Sequence record: PP989838.1
Strand: one strand, 5' to 3'
DNA: 64,000 nucleotides
From: Escherichia phage VTCCBPA_211
Shown: in pieces, positions 33,308 through 43,528 of the stretch
Position numbering within the stretch: position 1 is the stretch's first letter
Layout: every line of letters starts with the position of its first letter
The notes under the pieces: model-generated
The model's database searches: none
Told to the model about the DNA's origin: nothing
The model's input: the letters and a program-made list of their open reading frames with translations, nothing else
Translations under genes and position numbers: made by a program

Positions 33308-36300
33308 TCACTCCTTAGGTCGAACTCTTACACGGAGTCTCGATTGACGCTTACTGCGTTCAAGCTTCTCTGACAATGAGCCACGTTTAATCTTCGGCTT
33401 CCCTTCGTCATTAAACTTCTCCAAGAACTTCAAGTACTCAGTACGATTCGTTGTCTTGTAAGAAGGAATCTTAACATCAGGGTTCTCTTCGATTACACGT
33501 CTCATCTTCGCTACATCATCCCTACCAAGCAACTTACTCTTAGCCTGTTCAGCTGTAGAACCAAAGATCTTCTCCAGTGCCCTAGATTTGTTACCACCTG
33601 CGGAAGAAGCACCAAGTTTAGCAATGGCAGAGTAATCATCAGCACTAAACCAAGCTACTGGATTATCACCATACTTCTTCTTGTTTTCAGCAGCAGTCTG
33701 CAATGCACGCACAAAGCGACGGTTGTTACCAGCCTTATCTGCACCATGAACCCTGTCTAAAACTTCAGCCACACTAGCCAACTCATCCAAGCTCTTCCCA
33801 CTCAAGAAAGCTTTCTCTACTTTATCAGCAAAGACCTCTTCTTGTTGTTTAATGCTTTCCAAGATATCAGAATTTGCTTGAGATTTTTCATCATCAGGCA
33901 GAGCAGAACGAATCTTCTCCATCTCCAACTCTTCCTCTTGCAGTTTCTTAATATCAGAGTCAACCTTCTGAGCCTCCTCAACAGCCTTCCTAGTATCCGA
34001 ATCCAAGTTATCAAGCTTACCTTCAGTATTTCCAGTAACCTTAACAATCTCTTTCTCGATAGGAGTCATTGATTCGTACTTCTTAGCGAACTTCTCAACA
34101 TCAGCTTCGATACGAGAGCGAGCATTCTGATGTTCAGTCGGAGTCATAGGCTTCTCAAGAAGTGCATAACGGTTATCCATATAGGAACCAGCAAACGCTT
34201 CAGCATCCTCTCTAGATATGCCCTTATCTTCCATAGTACGCATCAGGCGGCGATGAATGTCATCACGTTGACGTTGTACTGCCATAAGGTCATTCTCACG
34301 CTCTTGGGCCGCTTTAAGCTCTTCACTGCGCTTAACTCTCTTGTCCACATCAAACTTACGGTTCATCTCTTCCGCTTGCTCATACATCTTGTTCCACTTA
34401 GCCTGACGAGCATCTTCCTCTGCATCAGTTAAACGACGCTGACGATCAAGGTAATCTGACTCGGCGTTGTGGATACGTTCAATATAACTACGGAACTTCT
34501 CTGGAGGAACTGGAGAGTTCTTATCGTGGTGAGCAGCCAACTGTTTCAGTGTACGAGATTCCTGAGCCTTACGAACAGGTTTAGGTAAACCTTCCATCAT
34601 CTTCTCAATCTCACTCTTCTGAGCTGCAATAGCCTCTAGAGTTTTACGTTCATTCTCAACAGCAGCTTTAGCATCCGAACGAGCCTGAGCCTTTTTCCTG
34701 AGTGTAGCAAGACGTTCTTCACGAGCCTGTAAATGCTTAGCAGCAGCTTCGTACTGAGAGTTCTTGTTAGCTTTGTTGAAGGCATTCACTTCTCTGTTAT
34801 AGGTGTTAATAAACCCATCCCAAATATCCTTCATCTGACCAACTTCCAAAGCCTCTTCCCTACCAGCCTTCTCTGAAGATTTAAACTTTCCATCTACAAA
34901 GTCATTCATCAATTTACGCATAGCGTCTTTCTGAGCAGGACGTAAAGGTTCTGCATCAATCAAAGTATCAATCTCAGACTGAAGCTCTTTCTTCTGGTCA
35001 ACCAGCTTAGGAGCATTCTTGTTATCGAAAGCTTTATTCTCTTCTAGAGCTTGTTGGTACAGTCTATCAAACTCATCTTCACGCTGCTTCTGATACAACC
35101 TTTCAGCACGACGTTTCAGACTATCCAAGTTAGTTACGTTCCCACCTAAACCTTTCTCTTCAGCACGTAATGCCTTAGTAGCAATGTCTTCTGGCAGACC
35201 ACGTTCTTTAACCCATTCAGCAAAGTTAGTTCGTACAGTGTTGTTCTTAGCAGTAGCAATACCTTGCTGAGAAGCCAGCTGGTTACGAGCCATCTCTTCA
35301 TGACGTTCAGTGTTGATAGCATTATCTTCCCGACGAATACGCCGCATCAACTCCAAAGGGTCTCCCTTGTAAGCCAAGAAGTTTTCAGCAGTAGCTTTAG
35401 CTTTAGCAGCCTTAGAGTATAAAGATTTAGCAAAACGTGTTGCACGATCTTTAGCAACTTGACGAGCAGTGCTTGACATAGCAGCTAGGAATTCTACACC
35501 ACTTTCCGGTTTAACATCCTGTACAGCTTCCTGAGGAGCTTTAGGGGAACGGGTAGGTAATGGATCAGCTTGTCTTAGAGAACTAGCTTTGACCATATCA
35601 TTTGAGTCAACCAAATTATGGTTACGCAAAAACTGTTGCTCAGCCGGGGTGAACTGATTTAGGCGAAGGGCAATGTTGCCATTTAAATCTTGAGAAAGTA
35701 TCCCATCTTCAGCATAGTGAGAGAGAGATTCTTTAGTAACAGAAGATGCATCCTCTGATGAAGCCTTTTGGCCCTCTTCTTGAGCACGTTGCTGCTCTGT
35801 TGCACGGCGCTCCTCTAAAGGATTACGAGCAGGAAGAGGTTCAGCCTGTGGAGCTTGTTCAACAGGAGCTTCTTGAGCAGCCAATGCCTCTTCTTCAGCG
35901 CGACGCTGTTCAGCCTGACGGATAGCACGTCTTTGAGCAACTAAATCACGAGCCGTAAGAGGGGCTTCTTGAGGAGCAGAAGAAGGAAGATTTTCTTCCG
36001 TCACAGTACTAGAAGAAGGCTCCCGAACCGGTTCGGTTTCCACGTCATTTTGCGTCTTAAAATTAATGTCATCAACAGCTGGTTCTTCTTCCATCTTAGT
36101 GCGAGCTTCATCAGCAGCGGATTTAGCACGAGCAACTTCCAAATCACCACGAGCTAGAGAGCGGATAGCTTCACTGTTAGATTCTTGTTGCTTAACACGT
36201 TGAGAGCGAGCACGCTGAGAAGAGAAGCGATTCAGAGCATATTTAGCAGCACCAAGAGTGTTCATTACCAGACTAGGTGAAGAAGCCTCACGGAAGCCAT

Positions 36301-37888
36301 CATCAGTCAGGGAAGTCCAGCCACGATCTTGGTTGCTCATGAATTTAGCTGTATTGTTCAGAGTGTAAGCATCTTGGATAGGATTAAAACCTTCAGGCAT
36401 ACCTTTCAGTTTCTTCAACCCACCAATAGCTTTCTTCATCTCTGGAGAAACATTATCAGCCATCTTCTGTAGTTCAGCAGCTTTCTCTACAAAGTTATTA
36501 AAGTCTTCACCATCACGAGCTTTGAATCGATTTGCTTCATTATAGAAAGTCTTGTAAGCATCAATGAAATCACGGTCAGCTTGTGTGCGATTCTTAACGT
36601 CAAGTGGACTACCGGTGAAGTGCCCAGATGCTCTAAGAGAAGTTAATTCACGATCTAGGTTGTCTAGAACATCTGTAAGGGCTTTCGTGTTGTCTTTGGT
36701 GTAATCAGCCATTGCATCCTTCATAGCAACAGCCTGCTTCTGGTTGTGCTCGTTATCAGCGAATGCTTTACCACGAGTCTTAGCAGGAGAAGCTAAAGGG
36801 TTGAGGCCCGGAATGTTGGAATGTTCTTTCTGAACGGAAGCAGCTTTCTCAGCACGAGCTTGGTCAGTATTAAGAATACGCTGAGCAGCAGGAGAATCTA
36901 CAGCAACAGCATCTGTAATACGGAATCCATTCTCATCTAGAAGGTTCAGAGCAGAAGCAGCGTTAGCAGTTTCAGCTTTAGAGTAAGCCTCTTTCAGCTC
37001 ATCAATATTCTTAGCACTACGAATCAGTTCATCATCAGCAGCAATATCAGTCTTCGCATACTCTGGAGTGTTCCTGAAGACAGCAGAATCCGGACGGCTA
37101 ATCAAACCATGAACCCCACCAACTGCACCACCAAATGCAGCACCCATAGCTCCTTCTTCGATAACACCTTCCAATGTCTTAGCTAGATCATTGTCATCAC
37201 CATACTTGTTCTGCGCTTCAGCAGCACCTATAAGAGCTCCGCCCTTAGCACCAGCCACTGCGTTAGTAGCAACGTTCTGACCAATACGTCCAAGTGTGGA
37301 CTCAGCTGTACCAACAGCACCCGGAAGGATTCTCATAGCCGCGTAGTTAGCACCACCAACTAAAGCTGCATCTAGAATAGACTTATCTTCTCCCTCTTCA
37401 GGGGTTTGGTCTGCATACGCACGACCTGTCTCACGACCTGCGATGATAGCAGCAGCCGCCAATGGGTTAGCAACAGTCATGCCGATATCACCAGCAACGC
37501 CAGCATACTGACCAACAGTTTTACCAATCCCATCCTCAATCTTATCCATACGTTCTTTCAGAAGGTTCTGAGAGTTCTCTTGGATACGCTTACCATAACT
37601 AGTTTGTGCTCCAGCTAGATTCTCACCAATCTCAACTAAACCACCAATACCTTTAGCAGCACTAGCTGCGATGTTTGCACCACCAGATTGAAGAGCATTT
37701 GACACACCTTGAGCAAACTCACCTATAGCACCACGTTCTTCTTGTTGTGGTTGTGCTGCTGGTTGTTCCTCAGGAATAGAGCCACCTGCTGCCTTATATT
37801 GTTCTCTCATTTGAGCCTGCTGCTCTGGAGAGGCATTCAGATACGCAGGAGCTTTGGAAGCTTCTTCCCACGGTTTAATGTTAGCCAT
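33308..37888 (-). CDS. large internal virion / ejection protein (about 1526 aa, coiled-coil rich)
   Basis: Start set to the ATG at 37888 (MANIKPWEE) with AAAGGAGA SD just downstream of a TAATGTATA motif; last gene before the convergent terminator. Confidence 0.45.
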   Translation of the reverse strand: MANIKPWEEASKAPAYLNASPEQQAQMREQYKAAGGSIPEEQPAAQPQQEERGAIGEFAQGVSNALQSGGANIAASAAKGIGGLVEIGENLAGAQTSYGKRIQENSQNLLKERMDKIEDGIGKTVGQYAGVAGDIGMTVANPLAAAAIIAGRETGRAYADQTPEEGEDKSILDAALVGGANYAAMRILPGAVGTAESTLGRIGQNVATNAVAGAKGGALIGAAEAQNKYGDDNDLAKTLEGVIEEGAMGAAFGGAVGGVHGLISRPDSAVFRNTPEYAKTDIAADDELIRSAKNIDELKEAYSKAETANAASALNLLDENGFRITDAVAVDSPAAQRILNTDQARAEKAASVQKEHSNIPGLNPLASPAKTRGKAFADNEHNQKQAVAMKDAMADYTKDNTKALTDVLDNLDRELTSLRASGHFTGSPLDVKNRTQADRDFIDAYKTFYNEANRFKARDGEDFNNFVEKAAELQKMADNVSPEMKKAIGGLKKLKGMPEGFNPIQDAYTLNNTAKFMSNQDRGWTSLTDDGFREASSPSLVMNTLGAAKYALNRFSSQRARSQRVKQQESNSEAIRSLARGDLEVARAKSAADEARTKMEEEPAVDDINFKTQNDVETEPVREPSSSTVTEENLPSSAPQEAPLTARDLVAQRRAIRQAEQRRAEEEALAAQEAPVEQAPQAEPLPARNPLEERRATEQQRAQEEGQKASSEDASSVTKESLSHYAEDGILSQDLNGNIALRLNQFTPAEQQFLRNHNLVDSNDMVKASSLRQADPLPTRSPKAPQEAVQDVKPESGVEFLAAMSSTARQVAKDRATRFAKSLYSKAAKAKATAENFLAYKGDPLELMRRIRREDNAINTERHEEMARNQLASQQGIATAKNNTVRTNFAEWVKERGLPEDIATKALRAEEKGLGGNVTNLDSLKRRAERLYQKQREDEFDRLYQQALEENKAFDNKNAPKLVDQKKELQSEIDTLIDAEPLRPAQKDAMRKLMNDFVDGKFKSSEKAGREEALEVGQMKDIWDGFINTYNREVNAFNKANKNSQYEAAAKHLQAREERLATLRKKAQARSDAKAAVENERKTLEAIAAQKSEIEKMMEGLPKPVRKAQESRTLKQLAAHHDKNSPVPPEKFRSYIERIHNAESDYLDRQRRLTDAEEDARQAKWNKMYEQAEEMNRKFDVDKRVKRSEELKAAQERENDLMAVQRQRDDIHRRLMRTMEDKGISREDAEAFAGSYMDNRYALLEKPMTPTEHQNARSRIEADVEKFAKKYESMTPIEKEIVKVTGNTEGKLDNLDSDTRKAVEEAQKVDSDIKKLQEEELEMEKIRSALPDDEKSQANSDILESIKQQEEVFADKVEKAFLSGKSLDELASVAEVLDRVHGADKAGNNRRFVRALQTAAENKKKYGDNPVAWFSADDYSAIAKLGASSAGGNKSRALEKIFGSTAEQAKSKLLGRDDVAKMRRVIEENPDVKIPSYKTTNRTEYLKFLEKFNDEGKPKIKRGSLSEKLERSKRQSRLRVRVRPKE

Positions 37889-37926
37889 AACGTCTCCTTT
37901 TATAAATAAAAATGTCCTACCCCCTA

Positions 37927-37935
37927 TATACATTA
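37927..37935 (-). promoter_or_regulatory. promoter motif TAATGTATA (minus strand)
   Basis: Motif then AAAGGAGA SD then ATG at 37888. Confidence 0.5.
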
Positions 37936-37955
37936 TAGAAGGCAGGACTTAGGTC

Positions 37956-39635
37956 TTATTGAGTGAACCAGCTAGTATCTGAAGAATCGGATAAAGCACC
38001 ACCCTTCAATTTAGGAGGCTTGTCATCAGGGAATGTTTTATCATGAACTTTACTGTGTCCACGAGACCATTCTTTAAACTCTTCAGTAGTGAGTCGAACA
38101 GAGCCAGGAGCAAAAATAGAGTTAGCAGCTCTGATAGCATTTTCAGGAGCCAAACCACTGTCAAGAATCAAAGATTCCACTAGAGGGGCTACTTGGTATT
38201 TAGTTGCCTCTTTATCAATTTCTTGAATCTCTGTACCAAGTGCTTTAAGCCACTTAATGTTTGCTTCGGTTGGGCCTTGACCTGCCATCATCTGAATCTT
38301 GTTCAACTTGTTGTTAACCCAATCTGGATCACCTGTAAGCTCATTCATAACTTCTCCGTTAATAGAAGCTAAACCACCCTGAATAAGTTTAGTCAAGTTC
38401 TCAATAGCAGCACGTTGCTGAGCTGAGTTCTCTTGAGAGTTTGCACCAGTTCCTAGTTTAGAAATAGCAGCTTCTGTAGGAGCCATCCACTTGTTTCGAG
38501 AAGCTAGGACATTAATAACAGGACGATAAGATTGCTGTAGCTTATCTCGTAAGTTAGGGGTAATACCACCAAGCTCCTCTGTTTTTTCCCACTTGGGAGA
38601 TGTTCTACGAACATTGTGTTCCTTCTTGAACAAAAGGTTGTCACGAACAATCTCACCACGAGCTTCTGCCAGAGCTAATTGGTTTTCCAAAGTAGCCTTA
38701 CGATTTCTCTCAGCAGATTCTTCACTGATAGCTTGACGTCTATCCCACTCAGCATTCTGACGTCTTTCACGCTCAGCGTATAAAGCTTCCTGTTGAAGAG
38801 GGTCTTTAGCTCTCATCTTCAGAAGAGAAGGGTCTCCGCTTGCGATAGCAGCAGCAATGGAGTCTTGAGAGAAACCTTGTTCAACCAATGCATCACGGTT
38901 AGCTTCTAGTTGTTTCTTAGTCTCATCTTGGTTAGCCATACCTTGACCAATTTGGAAAGCTTCAATTGGAGACTTACCTGACATGATTGAAAGACCTACA
39001 CCCATTAAGCCTGTGTAGAAACTAGAGTTCTGATAGAACGGCTCTTTCTGTAACTTATTCCAAGCCTCTGAAGGGTCTTTAGCTTTTGCAATCTGCATGA
39101 TATCAGAGTTAACACGTTCTTGATCTTTTGCACGAGTAGCCCCAGCCATGCCTTCACTAGTGTCCTGACTTTGAGCAAGAGTGGTAACAACACCTTGTGC
39201 CTGCTCTACTTGAGAAGGAGTAAACTCTGTAGGACCATCTTCGAGAGGCTTAGTCGGAGGCGTCACCGGAAGAGGGTCGCTAGGCATAAGTCCCGCATCT
39301 TGTAAACCTTGATCAGTGGATAGGTTAGGATTAGCTGCTACAGGAGCTGGTTCCCCAACATCAATGCCCTGAAGGCTTGTTGGAGTTCCTCGATTCTGTT
39401 GTTCCATAAGACGTTGCTGGAATCCCGGATTCACCATAGCATTCTGATCTTCTTCTGCCTGAGAGACAAGGCCAGCAAGAGATGAAGGTACAGCAGGACG
39501 TTGGTACATAGAAACATCTGATGTCTGAATAGGTCTAGCCATATAAGGAGAGGCCGAAGCCGCTCCCGGATTAACACCATAGAAAGTATTTCTCGGGTCA
39601 CGACTCCTGACCTGAGCGTAAGTTGTCTGTTGCAT
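37956..39635 (-). CDS. internal virion protein (559 aa)
   Basis: Long ORF with AGGAGA SD in the structural operon. Confidence 0.4.
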   Translation of the reverse strand: MQQTTYAQVRSRDPRNTFYGVNPGAASASPYMARPIQTSDVSMYQRPAVPSSLAGLVSQAEEDQNAMVNPGFQQRLMEQQNRGTPTSLQGIDVGEPAPVAANPNLSTDQGLQDAGLMPSDPLPVTPPTKPLEDGPTEFTPSQVEQAQGVVTTLAQSQDTSEGMAGATRAKDQERVNSDIMQIAKAKDPSEAWNKLQKEPFYQNSSFYTGLMGVGLSIMSGKSPIEAFQIGQGMANQDETKKQLEANRDALVEQGFSQDSIAAAIASGDPSLLKMRAKDPLQQEALYAERERRQNAEWDRRQAISEESAERNRKATLENQLALAEARGEIVRDNLLFKKEHNVRRTSPKWEKTEELGGITPNLRDKLQQSYRPVINVLASRNKWMAPTEAAISKLGTGANSQENSAQQRAAIENLTKLIQGGLASINGEVMNELTGDPDWVNNKLNKIQMMAGQGPTEANIKWLKALGTEIQEIDKEATKYQVAPLVESLILDSGLAPENAIRAANSIFAPGSVRLTTEEFKEWSRGHSKVHDKTFPDDKPPKLKGGALSDSSDTSWFTQ

Positions 39636-39648
39636 ATTTATCTCCTAA

Positions 39649-40617
39649 TTAAGAACTAGCCATCCCGCCAATCACCCCTCCAGCCAAAGCACCCCAAGGA
39701 CCAAAGGAAGAGCCAGCTGCTGCACCACTCATAGCTCCACCAAGGAAACCACCACTCCCACCAGATGTTTTAGTAGTTGTAGTTTGTCCGAGAGCACCGT
39801 TAAGTACACCTGCTGCACCGAGTTGGTTGTTGATATCTTGCCATCCCCAATTAGCTGCGTTCTGAGCATTCTGGTAGGCATTATCATATTCATTCTGTTG
39901 TTGCTGTTGTTGCTGCAACCCAGCCTTCCATTGGTTTAATATTTGCTGTTGAGATAAATCAGCACCTTGTTGACCTAAGTTGGAAAGGTTAGAACCGATA
40001 GTAGAAAGACCTGATAGAGCAGCTGCCTGATTCTGTCTATTACCAGATAGGATGCTTTCAGCTTGACTGATAGCTGAGTTATAGGCACTGTTGGTAATAT
40101 CTGTTGCTTGACTTTGCATCTGATTCAGAGCATCGCCTTGGGCAAAAGATTTAGCCATACGAGCACCTGAACCTTGTTGACCGGCAAACTGTTGAGCCAA
40201 CTGAGGAAGAGCATTACGTGCCAAGTTCTGTTGAACCTGTTCATTATTAGCTGTAATGGCTGCTTGCACAGCGTCATCATCATACAGTTGACCAGCGAGA
40301 GCACCAATCTGTTCTCCAGTAATCCCACCTTGTCCAGAGAGGCTCTGATAGCCTTTATAGGCATTATCTAGATAACCCAAGCCTTGACCTGCTGCATCCA
40401 TGTATTGCTGTGAGAGAGTGCCTAGAGCGCCAGATTGTGCTAGGTTATTAAGTGCCTCTGTCTGATTGTTATTAAACCCTACATTATCTCGATAAACATA
40501 ATCCCCTGAACTAGTATTGCCAATTTGCTTGTTAAGCTGGTCGATATACTGTTGAATGTATTCAGGGCGAATCATTTGGGAAGTAGTTTTACTACCTCCG
40601 CCTCCGAATAAAGCCAT
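39649..40617 (-). CDS. Gln/Asn/Gly/Ala-rich virion protein, paralog 1 (322 aa)
   Basis: Low-complexity Q/N/G/A composition; N-terminus MALFGGGGSKTT and FNNNQTEALNNLA shared with the neighbour. Confidence 0.45.
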   Translation of the reverse strand: MALFGGGGSKTTSQMIRPEYIQQYIDQLNKQIGNTSSGDYVYRDNVGFNNNQTEALNNLAQSGALGTLSQQYMDAAGQGLGYLDNAYKGYQSLSGQGGITGEQIGALAGQLYDDDAVQAAITANNEQVQQNLARNALPQLAQQFAGQQGSGARMAKSFAQGDALNQMQSQATDITNSAYNSAISQAESILSGNRQNQAAALSGLSTIGSNLSNLGQQGADLSQQQILNQWKAGLQQQQQQQNEYDNAYQNAQNAANWGWQDINNQLGAAGVLNGALGQTTTTKTSGGSGGFLGGAMSGAAAGSSFGPWGALAGGVIGGMASS

Positions 40618-40629
40618 ATTAAATCTCCT

Positions 40630-41682
40630 TTAGTTTGCTCCGAATGCCCCTAAGACACCGCCTAAGATATTATTACCCGTTGTGGATAACCAGTTAGACT
40701 GACCTCTCTGTTGAGAAAGATTAGAACCTCCAATCATAGGTCCAGCCATTCCAGATTGCCCACCTGAGTTGTTATAGGAACTCCAAGCATTCTGAGTCTG
40801 TTGATTAGGAGAGAAAGCACCCATACGACCTGCAATACCTAACCCAGTGATACCAGCACCGAGAATCTGCTGCCCTGTGTTAATGCCCGGAGCGGCATTC
40901 TTAATTGTGTACCCAGCCATCGGGCTTACACTGTTTAATACATTAAGTTGGTTGTTAAGCTGATTCCACCCATACTGTTGAGAGCCAATAGCGTTCTGCC
41001 AATTAATATCAGCTTGAGCCTGAGCTTGTTGCTGTTGTAGATTACCAGCCATGAGTTGATTCTGGATAGCTTGTTGAGTTGCCTGAACACCTTGAGCACC
41101 AAGATTGAGATTCTGTCCAGCCAATCCTGACTGAGCACCAAGTAACCCTCTCTGGAAGTTTTGGTCTTGTTGAAGAGCGTTGATTCCCATATTCTTGCCG
41201 CTAATAGTACGAGCTAAGTTTGTATTAGCACTATTCAGAGCAGCACCTTGAGCAGCAGCTCTACGGAGAGAACCTGAATCAGAACCATTTCCGAGAGACA
41301 CGTTGGAAGCTGCCTTACTAGTAGCTTGGGCAAGAGCTGAGCTATTCAAACCTTTACTAAAGTTATTAACCCCTTCAGCCGTTACTCCACCACCATTGAC
41401 AATATTTTGATACTGCTGTGCAAGAGAGTTTAATTGGTCCAACCCTTGCTGTGTACGTGGTGTATACATATCAGCCAATTGCTTTTGAGTAGTAGAAGCT
41501 GCTAAGTTGTTCAGAGCACCTTGTTGGTTGCCATTAAACCCAGCCAGCTGTTGGGAGATGAATCCCGGATCGTTGTTCTGCATATTCTGAGCATTAGCAA
41601 CAATCTGCTTCAGCAGGGCATCAACCTGAGAGGAAGGAGCCACTGTGGTTTTGCTAGAAGCCGATTTTCCAAATAAAGACAT
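40630..41682 (-). CDS. Gln/Asn/Gly/Ala-rich virion protein, paralog 2 (350 aa)
   Basis: MSLFGKSASSKTT and FNGNQQGALNNLA; same composition. Confidence 0.45.
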   Translation of the reverse strand: MSLFGKSASSKTTVAPSSQVDALLKQIVANAQNMQNNDPGFISQQLAGFNGNQQGALNNLAASTTQKQLADMYTPRTQQGLDQLNSLAQQYQNIVNGGGVTAEGVNNFSKGLNSSALAQATSKAASNVSLGNGSDSGSLRRAAAQGAALNSANTNLARTISGKNMGINALQQDQNFQRGLLGAQSGLAGQNLNLGAQGVQATQQAIQNQLMAGNLQQQQAQAQADINWQNAIGSQQYGWNQLNNQLNVLNSVSPMAGYTIKNAAPGINTGQQILGAGITGLGIAGRMGAFSPNQQTQNAWSSYNNSGGQSGMAGPMIGGSNLSQQRGQSNWLSTTGNNILGGVLGAFGAN

Positions 41683-41701: not shown

Positions 41702-42484
41702 TTACTTAACACCAATGCTAGCCAAACGTCTAAGCACTGCTTGTGTTTGTGGACTGTACTGAGAACCTGCCGCATGTGGTGCACTTGCTCTCTGAACTGT
41801 TTGAGAAGTAGGAGGTTTACCAGCAAGCATAGCAGCTACTCCTAATACTGCATTACCAAAGTTCTGTTGGGGCTTCTGGTCTTCACCTTCCTGCACTTCA
41901 TCAGAGTAAAATTCTACTGGATTTCCACCTAAAGCGCCTGTCTTAGAAGCAGCAATCTCTGCCTGAGTTGGAGCTTGTGCGGCCTTCTCTCTATCTAGCA
42001 AGTCAGGGCTAAATTGATTGGCTGGTTGAACAGCTTGTAAAGCCCCTACAGGGTTAGCAATCTGAGAAGCTGCATCACCATAGAAAGGAAGAAAGTGTTT
42101 ATTGTTCATGGAGTCAAGAGCCTGAGGGGTAAACCCTTTCTTACCAGCGAACATCTGCTTAGCACCACCAGTTCCCTCTGAGTAGCCAACCATTGCCTTC
42201 TTAACATCGCCATTAAAAGCTTTCAGGTTGTCTCTGATGTAACGAGCACCCATATCGATATTCTTGGCTGGGTCAAGCCTATCTTCTAACTTGTAACCAT
42301 AATCTTTAGCTAACCCTTTACTGATCTGCATCAAACCAACAGGACCAGTTCCGGAAGCCACCTTAGGACGACCACTAGACTCCCTTTGAATTACAGCATG
42401 AATCAAAGCAGCTGGAATACCATACTTCTTTGAAGCCTGTTGAACCATCGGGTCTAGTTCTTCTATACCCATTCTAATTGCCAT
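41702..42484 (-). CDS. virion-associated lytic transglycosylase (SLT domain)
   Basis: QRESSGRP (catalytic Glu context), GLMQI and downstream SLT motifs. Confidence 0.65.
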   Translation of the reverse strand: MAIRMGIEELDPMVQQASKKYGIPAALIHAVIQRESSGRPKVASGTGPVGLMQISKGLAKDYGYKLEDRLDPAKNIDMGARYIRDNLKAFNGDVKKAMVGYSEGTGGAKQMFAGKKGFTPQALDSMNNKHFLPFYGDAASQIANPVGALQAVQPANQFSPDLLDREKAAQAPTQAEIAASKTGALGGNPVEFYSDEVQEGEDQKPQQNFGNAVLGVAAMLAGKPPTSQTVQRASAPHAAGSQYSPQTQAVLRRLASIGVK

Positions 42485-42493
42485 AAGTTCTCC

Positions 42494-43528
42494 TTATTGT
42501 ATGCTTCTAAAAATTTTCCTAGCATCTAGGACTGGAACCTGAAGGGAGATAGCCCCACCACCACCCATATCGTAGTTTCTATCCCACTGGAACATATATC
42601 GACCATACCCTGTACCAAAAGAAGAGCCGTTCATCGTATGAGATCTAGCATGTTGGAAATACCAACTCCCCGCCTGACCTCTAATAGAACCTGCTCCGTT
42701 TGTCAGAGGTATCATAGGATATGTAAGTCCAGTATTCCCTCCACTCATAGCCATAAAACGATCAACCATAAAAGGTGTTCTGTAAGTAGAAAATACACAC
42801 TGAGAACCATTAGGTGAATATATGTTTAATCCACCATTGTGAGTAGGAACACCAGCCCCATTACAGAACACTGCAACTCTCACATTATTGATTGTTCCTG
42901 TTTGGTTGTTGTTTCCGTTATTGTAGGTTCTGTTTTGGTAAACCCTGATATTACGACTCCCAGCATCATAGAGTAAACCTTGTCCTCCAGACCAGTTAGC
43001 AAATACGGAAGCTCTAGACATATCAAAACCACTGATTGCTGGTATTTTCATAGAGCCATTAATATTTCCTTCCCAAGCCCAAATACATTGACCAACAACT
43101 CCAGCATCTGATATAGAGAAGTAATCAGCTGTGTTTGAAAATGTTATCCCGTAGTTTCTATTAGCTCTGGGCCATATTTGATATACATTGAAAGCCACGT
43201 CAAACAATGGGTTACTTCCCGGATTCATATTTAAACTAACCCTGAAAGTCGAGTTATTAATGATGCTGATGTTATTCACAACATACACATCAGGGACAAG
43301 GTTAGGAGGAACCTCCCATTGCCAACACAGAGAGCCAGTAGGGACTACAACTATTTGACCTGAGCCATTCCATCCAGAAATAGGGAAATCCCTACTTCCT
43401 CCGTTAAAGTTATAATTACCGCTTACTCTGTTCTTAAATTGAGGGAAAGTAGAACCACTGTCAATAAAAAGCTCAGCCGGAGAAGCTGGTCCCGGCCCGG
43501 CTGGCGTTGTCCATATTCCATATGCCAT
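42494..43528 (-). CDS. tail-associated structural protein (344 aa)
   Basis: Asn/Gly/Ser-rich beta-type composition within the tail gene block. Confidence 0.35.
   Translation of the reverse strand: MAYGIWTTPAGPGPASPAELFIDSGSTFPQFKNRVSGNYNFNGGSRDFPISGWNGSGQIVVVPTGSLCWQWEVPPNLVPDVYVVNNISIINNSTFRVSLNMNPGSNPLFDVAFNVYQIWPRANRNYGITFSNTADYFSISDAGVVGQCIWAWEGNINGSMKIPAISGFDMSRASVFANWSGGQGLLYDAGSRNIRVYQNRTYNNGNNNQTGTINNVRVAVFCNGAGVPTHNGGLNIYSPNGSQCVFSTYRTPFMVDRFMAMSGGNTGLTYPMIPLTNGAGSIRGQAGSWYFQHARSHTMNGSSFGTGYGRYMFQWDRNYDMGGGGAISLQVPVLDARKIFRSIQ

Follow-up and report, generated by a model that had tools for sequence, protein, structure and literature searches.

A conserved tandem pair of ejection proteins, gp21 and gp22, in a phiEco32/SU10-like coliphage

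In Escherichia phage VTCCBPA_211 (sequence record PP989838.1), of which a stretch of 64,000 nucleotides was analysed (the window), two adjacent genes at positions 39,649 to 41,682 encode proteins that consist largely of glutamine, asparagine, glycine, alanine and serine. The locus raises the question of what proteins of such composition do in a phage particle. Their products are the ejection proteins gp21 and gp22 of a coliphage of the genus Kuravirus, resembling phiEco32 and SU10, an identity already known for near-identical proteins, and the evidence assembled here suggests that they are probably membrane-inserting, channel-forming subunits of the ejectosome at its nozzle-proximal end. The two genes, as called in the list of open reading frames (ORFs), are:

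40630..41682, minus strand: gp21-like ejection protein of 350 residues, the upstream paralog (phrog_4287; ortholog of SU10 gp21)
39649..40617, minus strand: gp22-like ejection protein of 322 residues, the downstream paralog (phrog_4287; ortholog of SU10 gp22)

The ORFs, adjacent and of exactly the lengths given in an earlier reading of the sequence alone (the original prediction), are separated by 12 nt, and each is preceded by a strong Shine-Dalgarno sequence (AAGGAGGA at 41693-41686 for the gp21-like ORF and AAGGAG at 40630-40625 for the gp22-like ORF). At the DNA level the region shares 94.4% identity with Escherichia phage Paul (Gordonclarkvirinae, Kuravirus), and 79 phiEco32-like records were matched. 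The 322-residue protein is 97% identical to SU10 gp22 and the 350-residue protein is 96% identical to SU10 gp21. These SU10 proteins, and likewise gp21/gp22 of phiEco32 and Paul, are orthologs of equal length (350/322 residues) encoded in the same order within the same operon, and the differences from SU10 are strain-level substitutions that are not material. Proteomics of SU10 detected gp21 (35.9 kDa, 53% coverage) and gp22 (33.3 kDa, 49% coverage; PMC4281155), and a cryo-electron microscopy study again found ORF21 (350 residues) and ORF22 (322 residues) in the virion by mass spectrometry, along with gp23 and gp24, and listed gp20 among the ejection proteins (PMC9509320). In that study gp20-24 were lost from the genome-release intermediate, density for gp21/gp22 was not resolved in the heads, and no homologs in the Protein Data Bank (PDB) were listed for them (PMC9509320). 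The virion proteomics that the original prediction had named as a check is therefore already published for near-identical proteins. Its proposal that the two are ejected virion-internal proteins is upheld by their detection in SU10 and their loss on genome release; no ordered internal-core density was resolved in SU10, so that its 'core components', taken in the T7 sense, are not shown. In RefSeq the two SU10 genes now carry the label 'DNA ejection protein', the gp22 of relatives is annotated 'DNA injection/ejection protein', and both genes of the window can safely be labelled as ejection proteins.

The composition of the two proteins is extreme and is shared with other members of their functional class. 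Gln, Asn, Gly, Ala and Ser make up 61.2% of the 322-residue protein and 62.6% of the 350-residue protein, compared with 33.4% across all long ORFs of the window; Gln and Asn alone contribute 24-27%, gp22 carries a run of nine glutamines (residues 234-242), charged residues amount to 9.3% and 6.6%, respectively, and both proteins lack Cys and His. This dominance of five residues had been noticed beforehand, as had similar N-termini and a shared FNxNQ-x-ALNNLA block, and alignment recovers both similarities. The N-termini of gp22 and gp21 are MALFGGGGSKTT and MSLFGKSASSKTT, respectively, and the block lies at:

40438..40476, minus strand: conserved block FNNNQTEALNNLA, gp22 residues 48-60 (pairwise alignment), corresponding to the family motif AGLNxxQxxAL
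41500..41538, minus strand: conserved block FNGNQQGALNNLA, gp21 residues 49-61 (pairwise alignment and alignment of gp21-type orthologs)

With composition adjustment, BLASTP aligns gp21 and gp22 over 319 columns at 31% identity (E=2e-13), and their Smith-Waterman score of 277 exceeds both global shuffles (89+-12, z=15.4) and shuffles of 30-residue blocks (101+-13, z=13.5). The proposed paralogy is real and goes beyond composition. The claim that such a composition is unusual for virion proteins does not hold for this class: the same five residues account for 58% of P22 gp7, 54% of epsilon15 gp14, 53% of LUZ24 gp53 and 47% of T7 gp14, and a Q/N/G/A/S-rich composition is typical of small podovirus ejection proteins and characteristic of the class.

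Both proteins match phrog_4287, 'DNA ejection protein' (E=9.1e-108 for the 322-residue and 3.6e-117 for the 350-residue protein). A profile built from 24 relatives retrieved 378 clusters at E<=1e-3 from 1.84 billion representative proteins, and family members share an ordered series of motifs: an N-terminal MG..GG..TT, AGLNxxQxxAL, G..GSSR, YQN, a TT...GGG junction and a C-terminal tail, LGGAxSGAAxGSxFGPWGAxxGxxxGG, where conservation is highest. As judged from sequence, the PHROG 4287 set is a genuine protein family and does not reflect composition bias alone. A direct sequence search of PDB chains with both proteins gave no match at E<=10, tblastn of the 350-residue protein against 50,697 phage records returned Kuravirus-like coliphages only, owing to the low-complexity filter, and a scan of IMG/VR gave only 8 loci, the degenerate patterns being saturated by low-complexity matches.

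When the family hidden Markov model (HMM) was run over all ORFs of the fetched loci, each Kuravirus-like locus contained exactly two adjacent matches, a gp21-type protein upstream and a gp22-type protein downstream. The tandem pair was found in the window, L001, L006-L012 and L014/L015, which amount to 9 different Kuravirus-like loci together with two duplicates of one of them; LUZ24 and two unrelated contigs each have a single family match. The gp21 lineage is marked by WNQLNNKLNVLNSVSPMAGYT, followed by LLGAGITGLGIxGxLGxFS and by a variable Q/N/G tail ending in G..L.G...FG. Relatives of 82-90 kb retain 51-54% identity to the window in the gp22-type copy and 42-43% in the gp21-type copy, and the most divergent values, at L014, are 43% and 35%. 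Because the pair is present in all Kuravirus-like loci scanned, down to 35-43% (gp21-type) and 43-54% (gp22-type) identity, we consider the duplication to be old and both copies to have been kept. This retention argues for non-redundant roles, and the two proteins possibly form a gp21/gp22 hetero-oligomer.

The L014 locus is an SU10-like module within a 389-kb contig of an E. coli assembly (GCA_023211535.1, contig DAHCAP010000002.1, 204317-225285) and comprises SU10_MCP, SU10_portal, SLT, a gp21/gp22 pair of 334 and 322 residues, and then proteins of 498 and 1113 residues. The same DNA occurs as a 64-kb contig of a Logan assembly and had no match among 5,426 complete E. coli genomes. L014 may be a Kuravirus-like prophage or a chimeric assembly.

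The predicted structure of gp22 depends strongly on the depth of the alignment supplied to AlphaFold2. With 24 sequences the score called pLDDT (predicted local distance difference test) was 37 and the model unusable; with 128 diverse members of the family the mean pLDDT rose to 81.7, with 148 residues at >=90 and a predicted template modelling (pTM) score of 0.47. The latter model is all helical (residues 19-34, 50-61, 63-95, 101-111, 114-143 and 150-276), and pLDDT exceeds 83 in each 10-residue block from 21 to 270 and is mostly >90. Its last helix, 150-276, comprises 127 residues and would extend for about 19 nm at 1.5 Å per residue, and the final ~45 residues are low-confidence coil, so that the tail is unstructured in the monomer. 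The closest folds are helical coiled-coil hairpins, and the structural matches in BFVD are uncharacterised phage proteins, several of them named 'DNA transfer protein' and some carrying extra domains. Heptad analysis of the long helix revealed no clean hydrophobic a/d register, and we therefore make no claim of a coiled-coil oligomer. The confident helical prediction, together with position-specific conservation over 378 clusters, shows that 'low-complexity' was an overstatement in the original prediction, and its suggestion of disorder or amyloid propensity is not borne out by the long, confidently predicted helices. More generally, a model from a shallow alignment is no sound reason to describe a protein of biased composition as disordered.

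The predicted helical bodies of both proteins are followed by glycine-rich hydrophobic segments:

39652..39765, minus strand: C-terminal glycine-zipper tail of gp22, residues 285-322, SGGSGGFLGGAMSGAAAGSSFGPWGALAGGVIGGMASS; the most conserved family block, uncharged
40810..40869, minus strand: hydrophobic glycine-zipper segment of gp21, residues 272-291, QILGAGITGLGIAGRMGAFS; highest hydropathy of gp21 (1.20 over 19 residues), within the conserved LLGAGITGLGIxGxLGxFS
40633..40680, minus strand: second glycine-rich hydrophobic end of gp21, residues 335-350, TGNNILGGVLGAFGAN, after a variable Q/N/G-rich linker; from the ortholog alignment, with a glycine-zipper pattern at residues 341-349

We propose that the gp22 tail is a membrane-inserting helical hairpin. 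The last 39 residues of gp22 are uncharged, with a maximum 15-residue hydropathy of 1.06, and gp22 scores 15.1 bits against the Pfam 'Glycine zipper 2TM domain', below the cut-off of 24.2. Peak hydropathy of the tails (0.94-1.29) is comparable to that of T7 gp14 and P22 gp7 (both 1.31) and lies under the classical transmembrane threshold. In some relatives the protein continues beyond the glycine-zipper tail: P0064, P0072 and P0077 (about 420-430 residues) and L016 2308-3573 carry a sub-threshold Peptidase_S74 (intramolecular chaperone) domain, a name also borne by structural neighbours in BFVD. The tail/S74 junction of P0064, which reads ...GGLMGAF followed directly by SDATLKDRV, resembles the S74 self-cleavage site, and cutting there would leave a gp7-like C-terminus. 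These observations hint that some members of the family oligomerise with the help of a chaperone.

A clear member of the family outside the Kuravirus-like phages is gp53 of LUZ24 ('phage particle protein'), which scores 107.4 bits against the family HMM (E=5.7e-35) and aligns with the family by hhalign at 90.5% probability over 213 columns (E=1.3e-6). Like gp21/gp22, this 313-residue protein, homologous over about 210 residues, has a TT-GGGG junction followed by a glycine-zipper tail, and its gene lies upstream of ejection proteins of ~505 and ~1055 residues. It differs in being less Q/N-rich (16% versus 24-27%) and in being encoded by a single copy in Bruynoghevirus rather than by a tandem pair. 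In most matched Bruynoghevirus records, PaP3 included, gp53 is >94% conserved. From genus, size and gene position, not from direct comparison, we infer that LUZ24 gp53 is the ortholog of Pa223 gp56. According to the Pa223 preprint, gp56 is present in virions by mass spectrometry and, as a prediction, acts as an outer-membrane channel of the gp14-like kind, with predicted transmembrane helices at 278-291 and 296-311 in the C-terminal tail (MemBrain) and a nonameric channel (AlphaFold3); the channel role of gp56 is thus a prediction and not an experimental result. A separate signal came from the tunnel-type protein LUZ24 gp51 (L003 5356-6873, minus strand), which scored 39.6 bits against the family HMM with bias correction off, compared with 12+-5 and 17+-4 for shuffles (z about 5), and was not significant with the correction on. 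Small and medium ejection proteins may thus be distantly related, or the signal may be leftover local-composition bias.

A second link is to P22 gp7 (Pfam PF25688; phrog_598) and concerns the tail. With an alignment of 17 gp7 sequences, hhalign matched the 37 C-terminal columns of the family at 94.6% probability (E=7e-8). This match scored 58.6; with the gp7 alignment reversed the score was 20.5, and 30 block-column shuffles gave 19.4+-5.2, reaching 33.6 at most. The C-terminus of gp7, ...GSSTPWGAAIGGGIGLLGSLF, corresponds to ...GSSFGPWGALAGGVIGGMASS of the window protein, and whole-protein gp7 scored 67 bits against the family HMM without correction, above global shuffles (24+-4, z=10.5) and 40-residue block shuffles (40+-6, z=4.7). 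Several results weigh against this link. After HMMER bias correction the gp7 score fell to -4.1 bits and was not significant, composition-adjusted BLAST of gp7 against the window proteins was likewise not significant, and in a Pfam search at E<=0.1 neither window protein matched any model, P22_gp7 included (gathering threshold 28 bits; P22 gp7 itself scores 428 bits against PF25688). A single gp7 sequence reached only 21.7% in hhalign, and beyond the last ~37 residues nothing is alignable after composition correction. The sequence comparisons support a C-terminal glycine-zipper module common to the family and P22 gp7, with full-length homology not established. Comparisons of the family by hhalign with P22 gp20 (0.4% probability) and gp16 were negative. 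Like gp21/gp22, P22 gp7 is encoded by an ejection gene located after the tail needle and before larger ejection proteins; it is a single gene product of 229 residues, compared with the tandem 322- and 350-residue proteins here, and its N-terminal 20 residues are removed by host OpdA, a cleavage for which no equivalent is known in gp21/gp22. P22 gp7 partitions into lipid nanodiscs and has been treated as an outer-membrane-pore analogue (DEV paper), and gp7, gp16 and gp20 of P22 are all required for K+ release and DNA injection.

With other small ejection proteins the correspondence is one of role and position. T7 gp14 (z=1.2-1.7) and epsilon15 gp14 (z=0.9-2.4) did not differ from shuffles against the family HMM. 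T7 gp14 and DEV gp73, which have been shown to form pores in bilayers and to localise to the outer membrane after infection (PMC8954989; DEV paper), fill the same functional slot as gp21/gp22, being small, poorly charged helical virion proteins encoded in an ejection-gene cluster; they are about half the size, and pore activity is experimental in their case and a proposal for PHROG 4287. T7 gp14 has a comparable peak hydropathy, but its hydrophobic segment is N-terminal and that of gp21/gp22 C-terminal. The minus-strand block of the window runs from tail proteins through a needle-like protein, a DUF6453 protein (gp19), the SLT transglycosylase, gp21 and gp22 to the 559-residue and ~1526-residue proteins. 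The pair therefore stands where it had been placed, between the lytic transglycosylase (41702-42484) and the large downstream proteins, and the order of needle, (gp19), transglycosylase, gp21, gp22, 559- and 1526-residue proteins parallels the small/medium/large order of ejection genes reviewed for podoviruses (PMC8954989).

These observations can be joined into a working scheme of ejection. The gp21 and gp22 proteins would be packaged in the prolate head with gp20 (the transglycosylase), gp23 and gp24 and, once the tail nozzle has formed and the needle is lost, would exit by way of the portal-tail channel, either before the DNA or together with it. Each would be a long antiparallel helical rod ending in a flexible, uncharged glycine-zipper tail; the tails may enter a membrane of the host, with the outer membrane beneath the tip of the nozzle as the likeliest one, and the helical bodies may oligomerise, possibly as a gp21/gp22 hetero-oligomer, to form the nozzle-proximal part of a trans-envelope conduit for DNA. 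The gp20 protein would cut peptidoglycan, and gp23 and gp24 would complete the periplasmic and inner-membrane parts. The experimental basis for this scheme is the presence of the near-identical SU10 proteins in virions and their loss on genome release; the present analysis contributes the paralogy, the family membership, the gp53 homology, the C-terminal module common with P22 gp7 and the conservation of the tandem pair; membrane insertion, the choice of membrane, pore formation, the oligomeric state and hetero-oligomerisation are extrapolations.

The main competing explanation assigns gp21/gp22 to the periplasmic tunnel, the role of T7 gp15, P22 gp20 and Sf6 gp12, with the ~19-nm helices spanning the periplasm and the glycine-zipper tails anchored in the inner membrane. 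Rod length makes this plausible, and three points weigh in its favour against a channel at the nozzle tip: the continuous 127-residue helix, at about 19 nm, is comparable with the cited 15-nm tube of the Sf6 gp20 homolog; gp21 and gp22 exceed all gp14-like proteins (181-240 residues; PMC8954989) in size by a factor of about 1.5-2; and the SU10 nozzle already carries the tail 28 nm further, as far as the cell surface (PMC9509320). Yet a separate protein, gp23 (559 residues), matches the 'small' gp15-like tunnel proteins (431-505 residues) in position and size class, the Bruynoghevirus homolog occurs alongside Pa223 gp54, a tunnel-type protein whose location is experimental, and the shared module is found with P22 gp7 and not with gp20. 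We regard a tunnel role as rather unlikely.

Two further explanations start from composition. If gp21/gp22 were largely disordered, Q/N-rich filler of the capsid, organising DNA or buffering pressure and ejected only incidentally, then the extreme composition and low charge, the lack of ordered density in SU10 heads (PMC9509320) and the pLDDT of 37 from the shallow alignment would be accounted for, as would the precedent of P22 ejection proteins that take up space otherwise fillable by DNA. The deep-alignment model, the position-by-position conservation of motifs and a strictly conserved hydrophobic tail with no obvious intracapsid role are at odds with such a function, as is the need for all three P22 proteins, gp7, gp16 and gp20, in K+ release and DNA injection. 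Prion-like or amyloid-forming behaviour, with biologically relevant aggregation, would draw on the Q+N content and the nine-glutamine run of gp22. The Q/N residues, however, fall within confidently predicted long helices, the closest folds are helical coiled-coil hairpins, P22 gp7 and further ejection proteins with a membrane or channel function have this composition too, and the order of the sequence is conserved well beyond composition. Because the helical model is confident and the conservation order-specific, a filler role is improbable and an amyloid role scarcely credible.

Beyond the reading of gp21/gp22 as nozzle-proximal channel subunits, a more far-reaching one may be entertained tentatively, although we would not expect it to hold in full. 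PHROG 4287 might constitute a distinct 'long gp7-like' class, in which a ~19-nm rod fuses an outer-membrane pore with part of the periplasmic conduit; the old tandem duplication in Kuravirus might have given rise to an obligate gp21/gp22 hetero-oligomeric channel; and the glycine-zipper 'GPWG' tail in common with P22 gp7 might serve podovirus ejectosomes widely as a portable module for membrane insertion.

The remaining ejection genes flank the pair:

41702..42484, minus strand: gp20, virion lytic transglycosylase of 260 residues, first gene of the ejection-protein set (Pfam PF01464, SLT, E=2e-24)
37956..39635, minus strand: gp23, ejection protein of 559 residues (ORF list; phrog_12130)
33308..37888, minus strand: gp24, ejection protein of ~1526 residues (ORF list; start at MANIKPWEE by comparison with phage Paul gp24)

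The gp20 protein shares 34% identity with the lytic domain at the N-terminus of T7 gp16 (BLASTP, E=1e-12), and here the lytic domain is a gene of its own; a weak match of the family HMM to gp20 (11.8 bits) overlaps the SLT domain and was judged spurious. In BLASTP comparisons gp23 and gp24 had no useful match to the ejection proteins of LUZ24, P22, T7 and epsilon15, and for gp23 there was no sequence link to T7 gp15, P22 gp20 or LUZ24 gp51. For this reason gp23 as a candidate periplasmic-tunnel subunit, and gp24 as a candidate inner-membrane or cytoplasmic component, are named from position and size alone. Between the gp23 stop (37956) and the likely gp24 ATG (37888), a 15-bp stem-loop followed by a T-run at 37914-37948 (minus strand), which carries no annotation in phage Paul, looks like an intrinsic terminator or attenuator preceding the giant gp24 gene, and the start at 37933 in the longest ORF call for gp24 is probably placed too far upstream. 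The gp19 gene (344 residues, 42494-43528, minus strand; Pfam DUF6453, PHROG 'membrane protein') belongs to this operon too, with the needle gene on one side and the transglycosylase on the other. Mass spectrometry did not detect its SU10 ortholog in virions (PMC9509320), and gp19 may have a non-structural role or act as an assembly factor.

No parts of short-tailed phages are less well understood than their ejection proteins, and in Kuravirus only their existence had been established, with gp20-24 of SU10 residing in the head and leaving with the DNA. The additions made here are modest: a link to Bruynoghevirus gp53 (Pa223 gp56), a module in common with P22 gp7, a helical rod with a predicted length of 19 nm, and a tandem duplication that has been conserved. 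They refine a known system and do not define a new kind of system. They correct the impression of disordered low-complexity proteins, and the links to the putative Bruynoghevirus channel and to the P22 gp7 tail provide a concrete, testable hypothesis for the function of gp21 and gp22.

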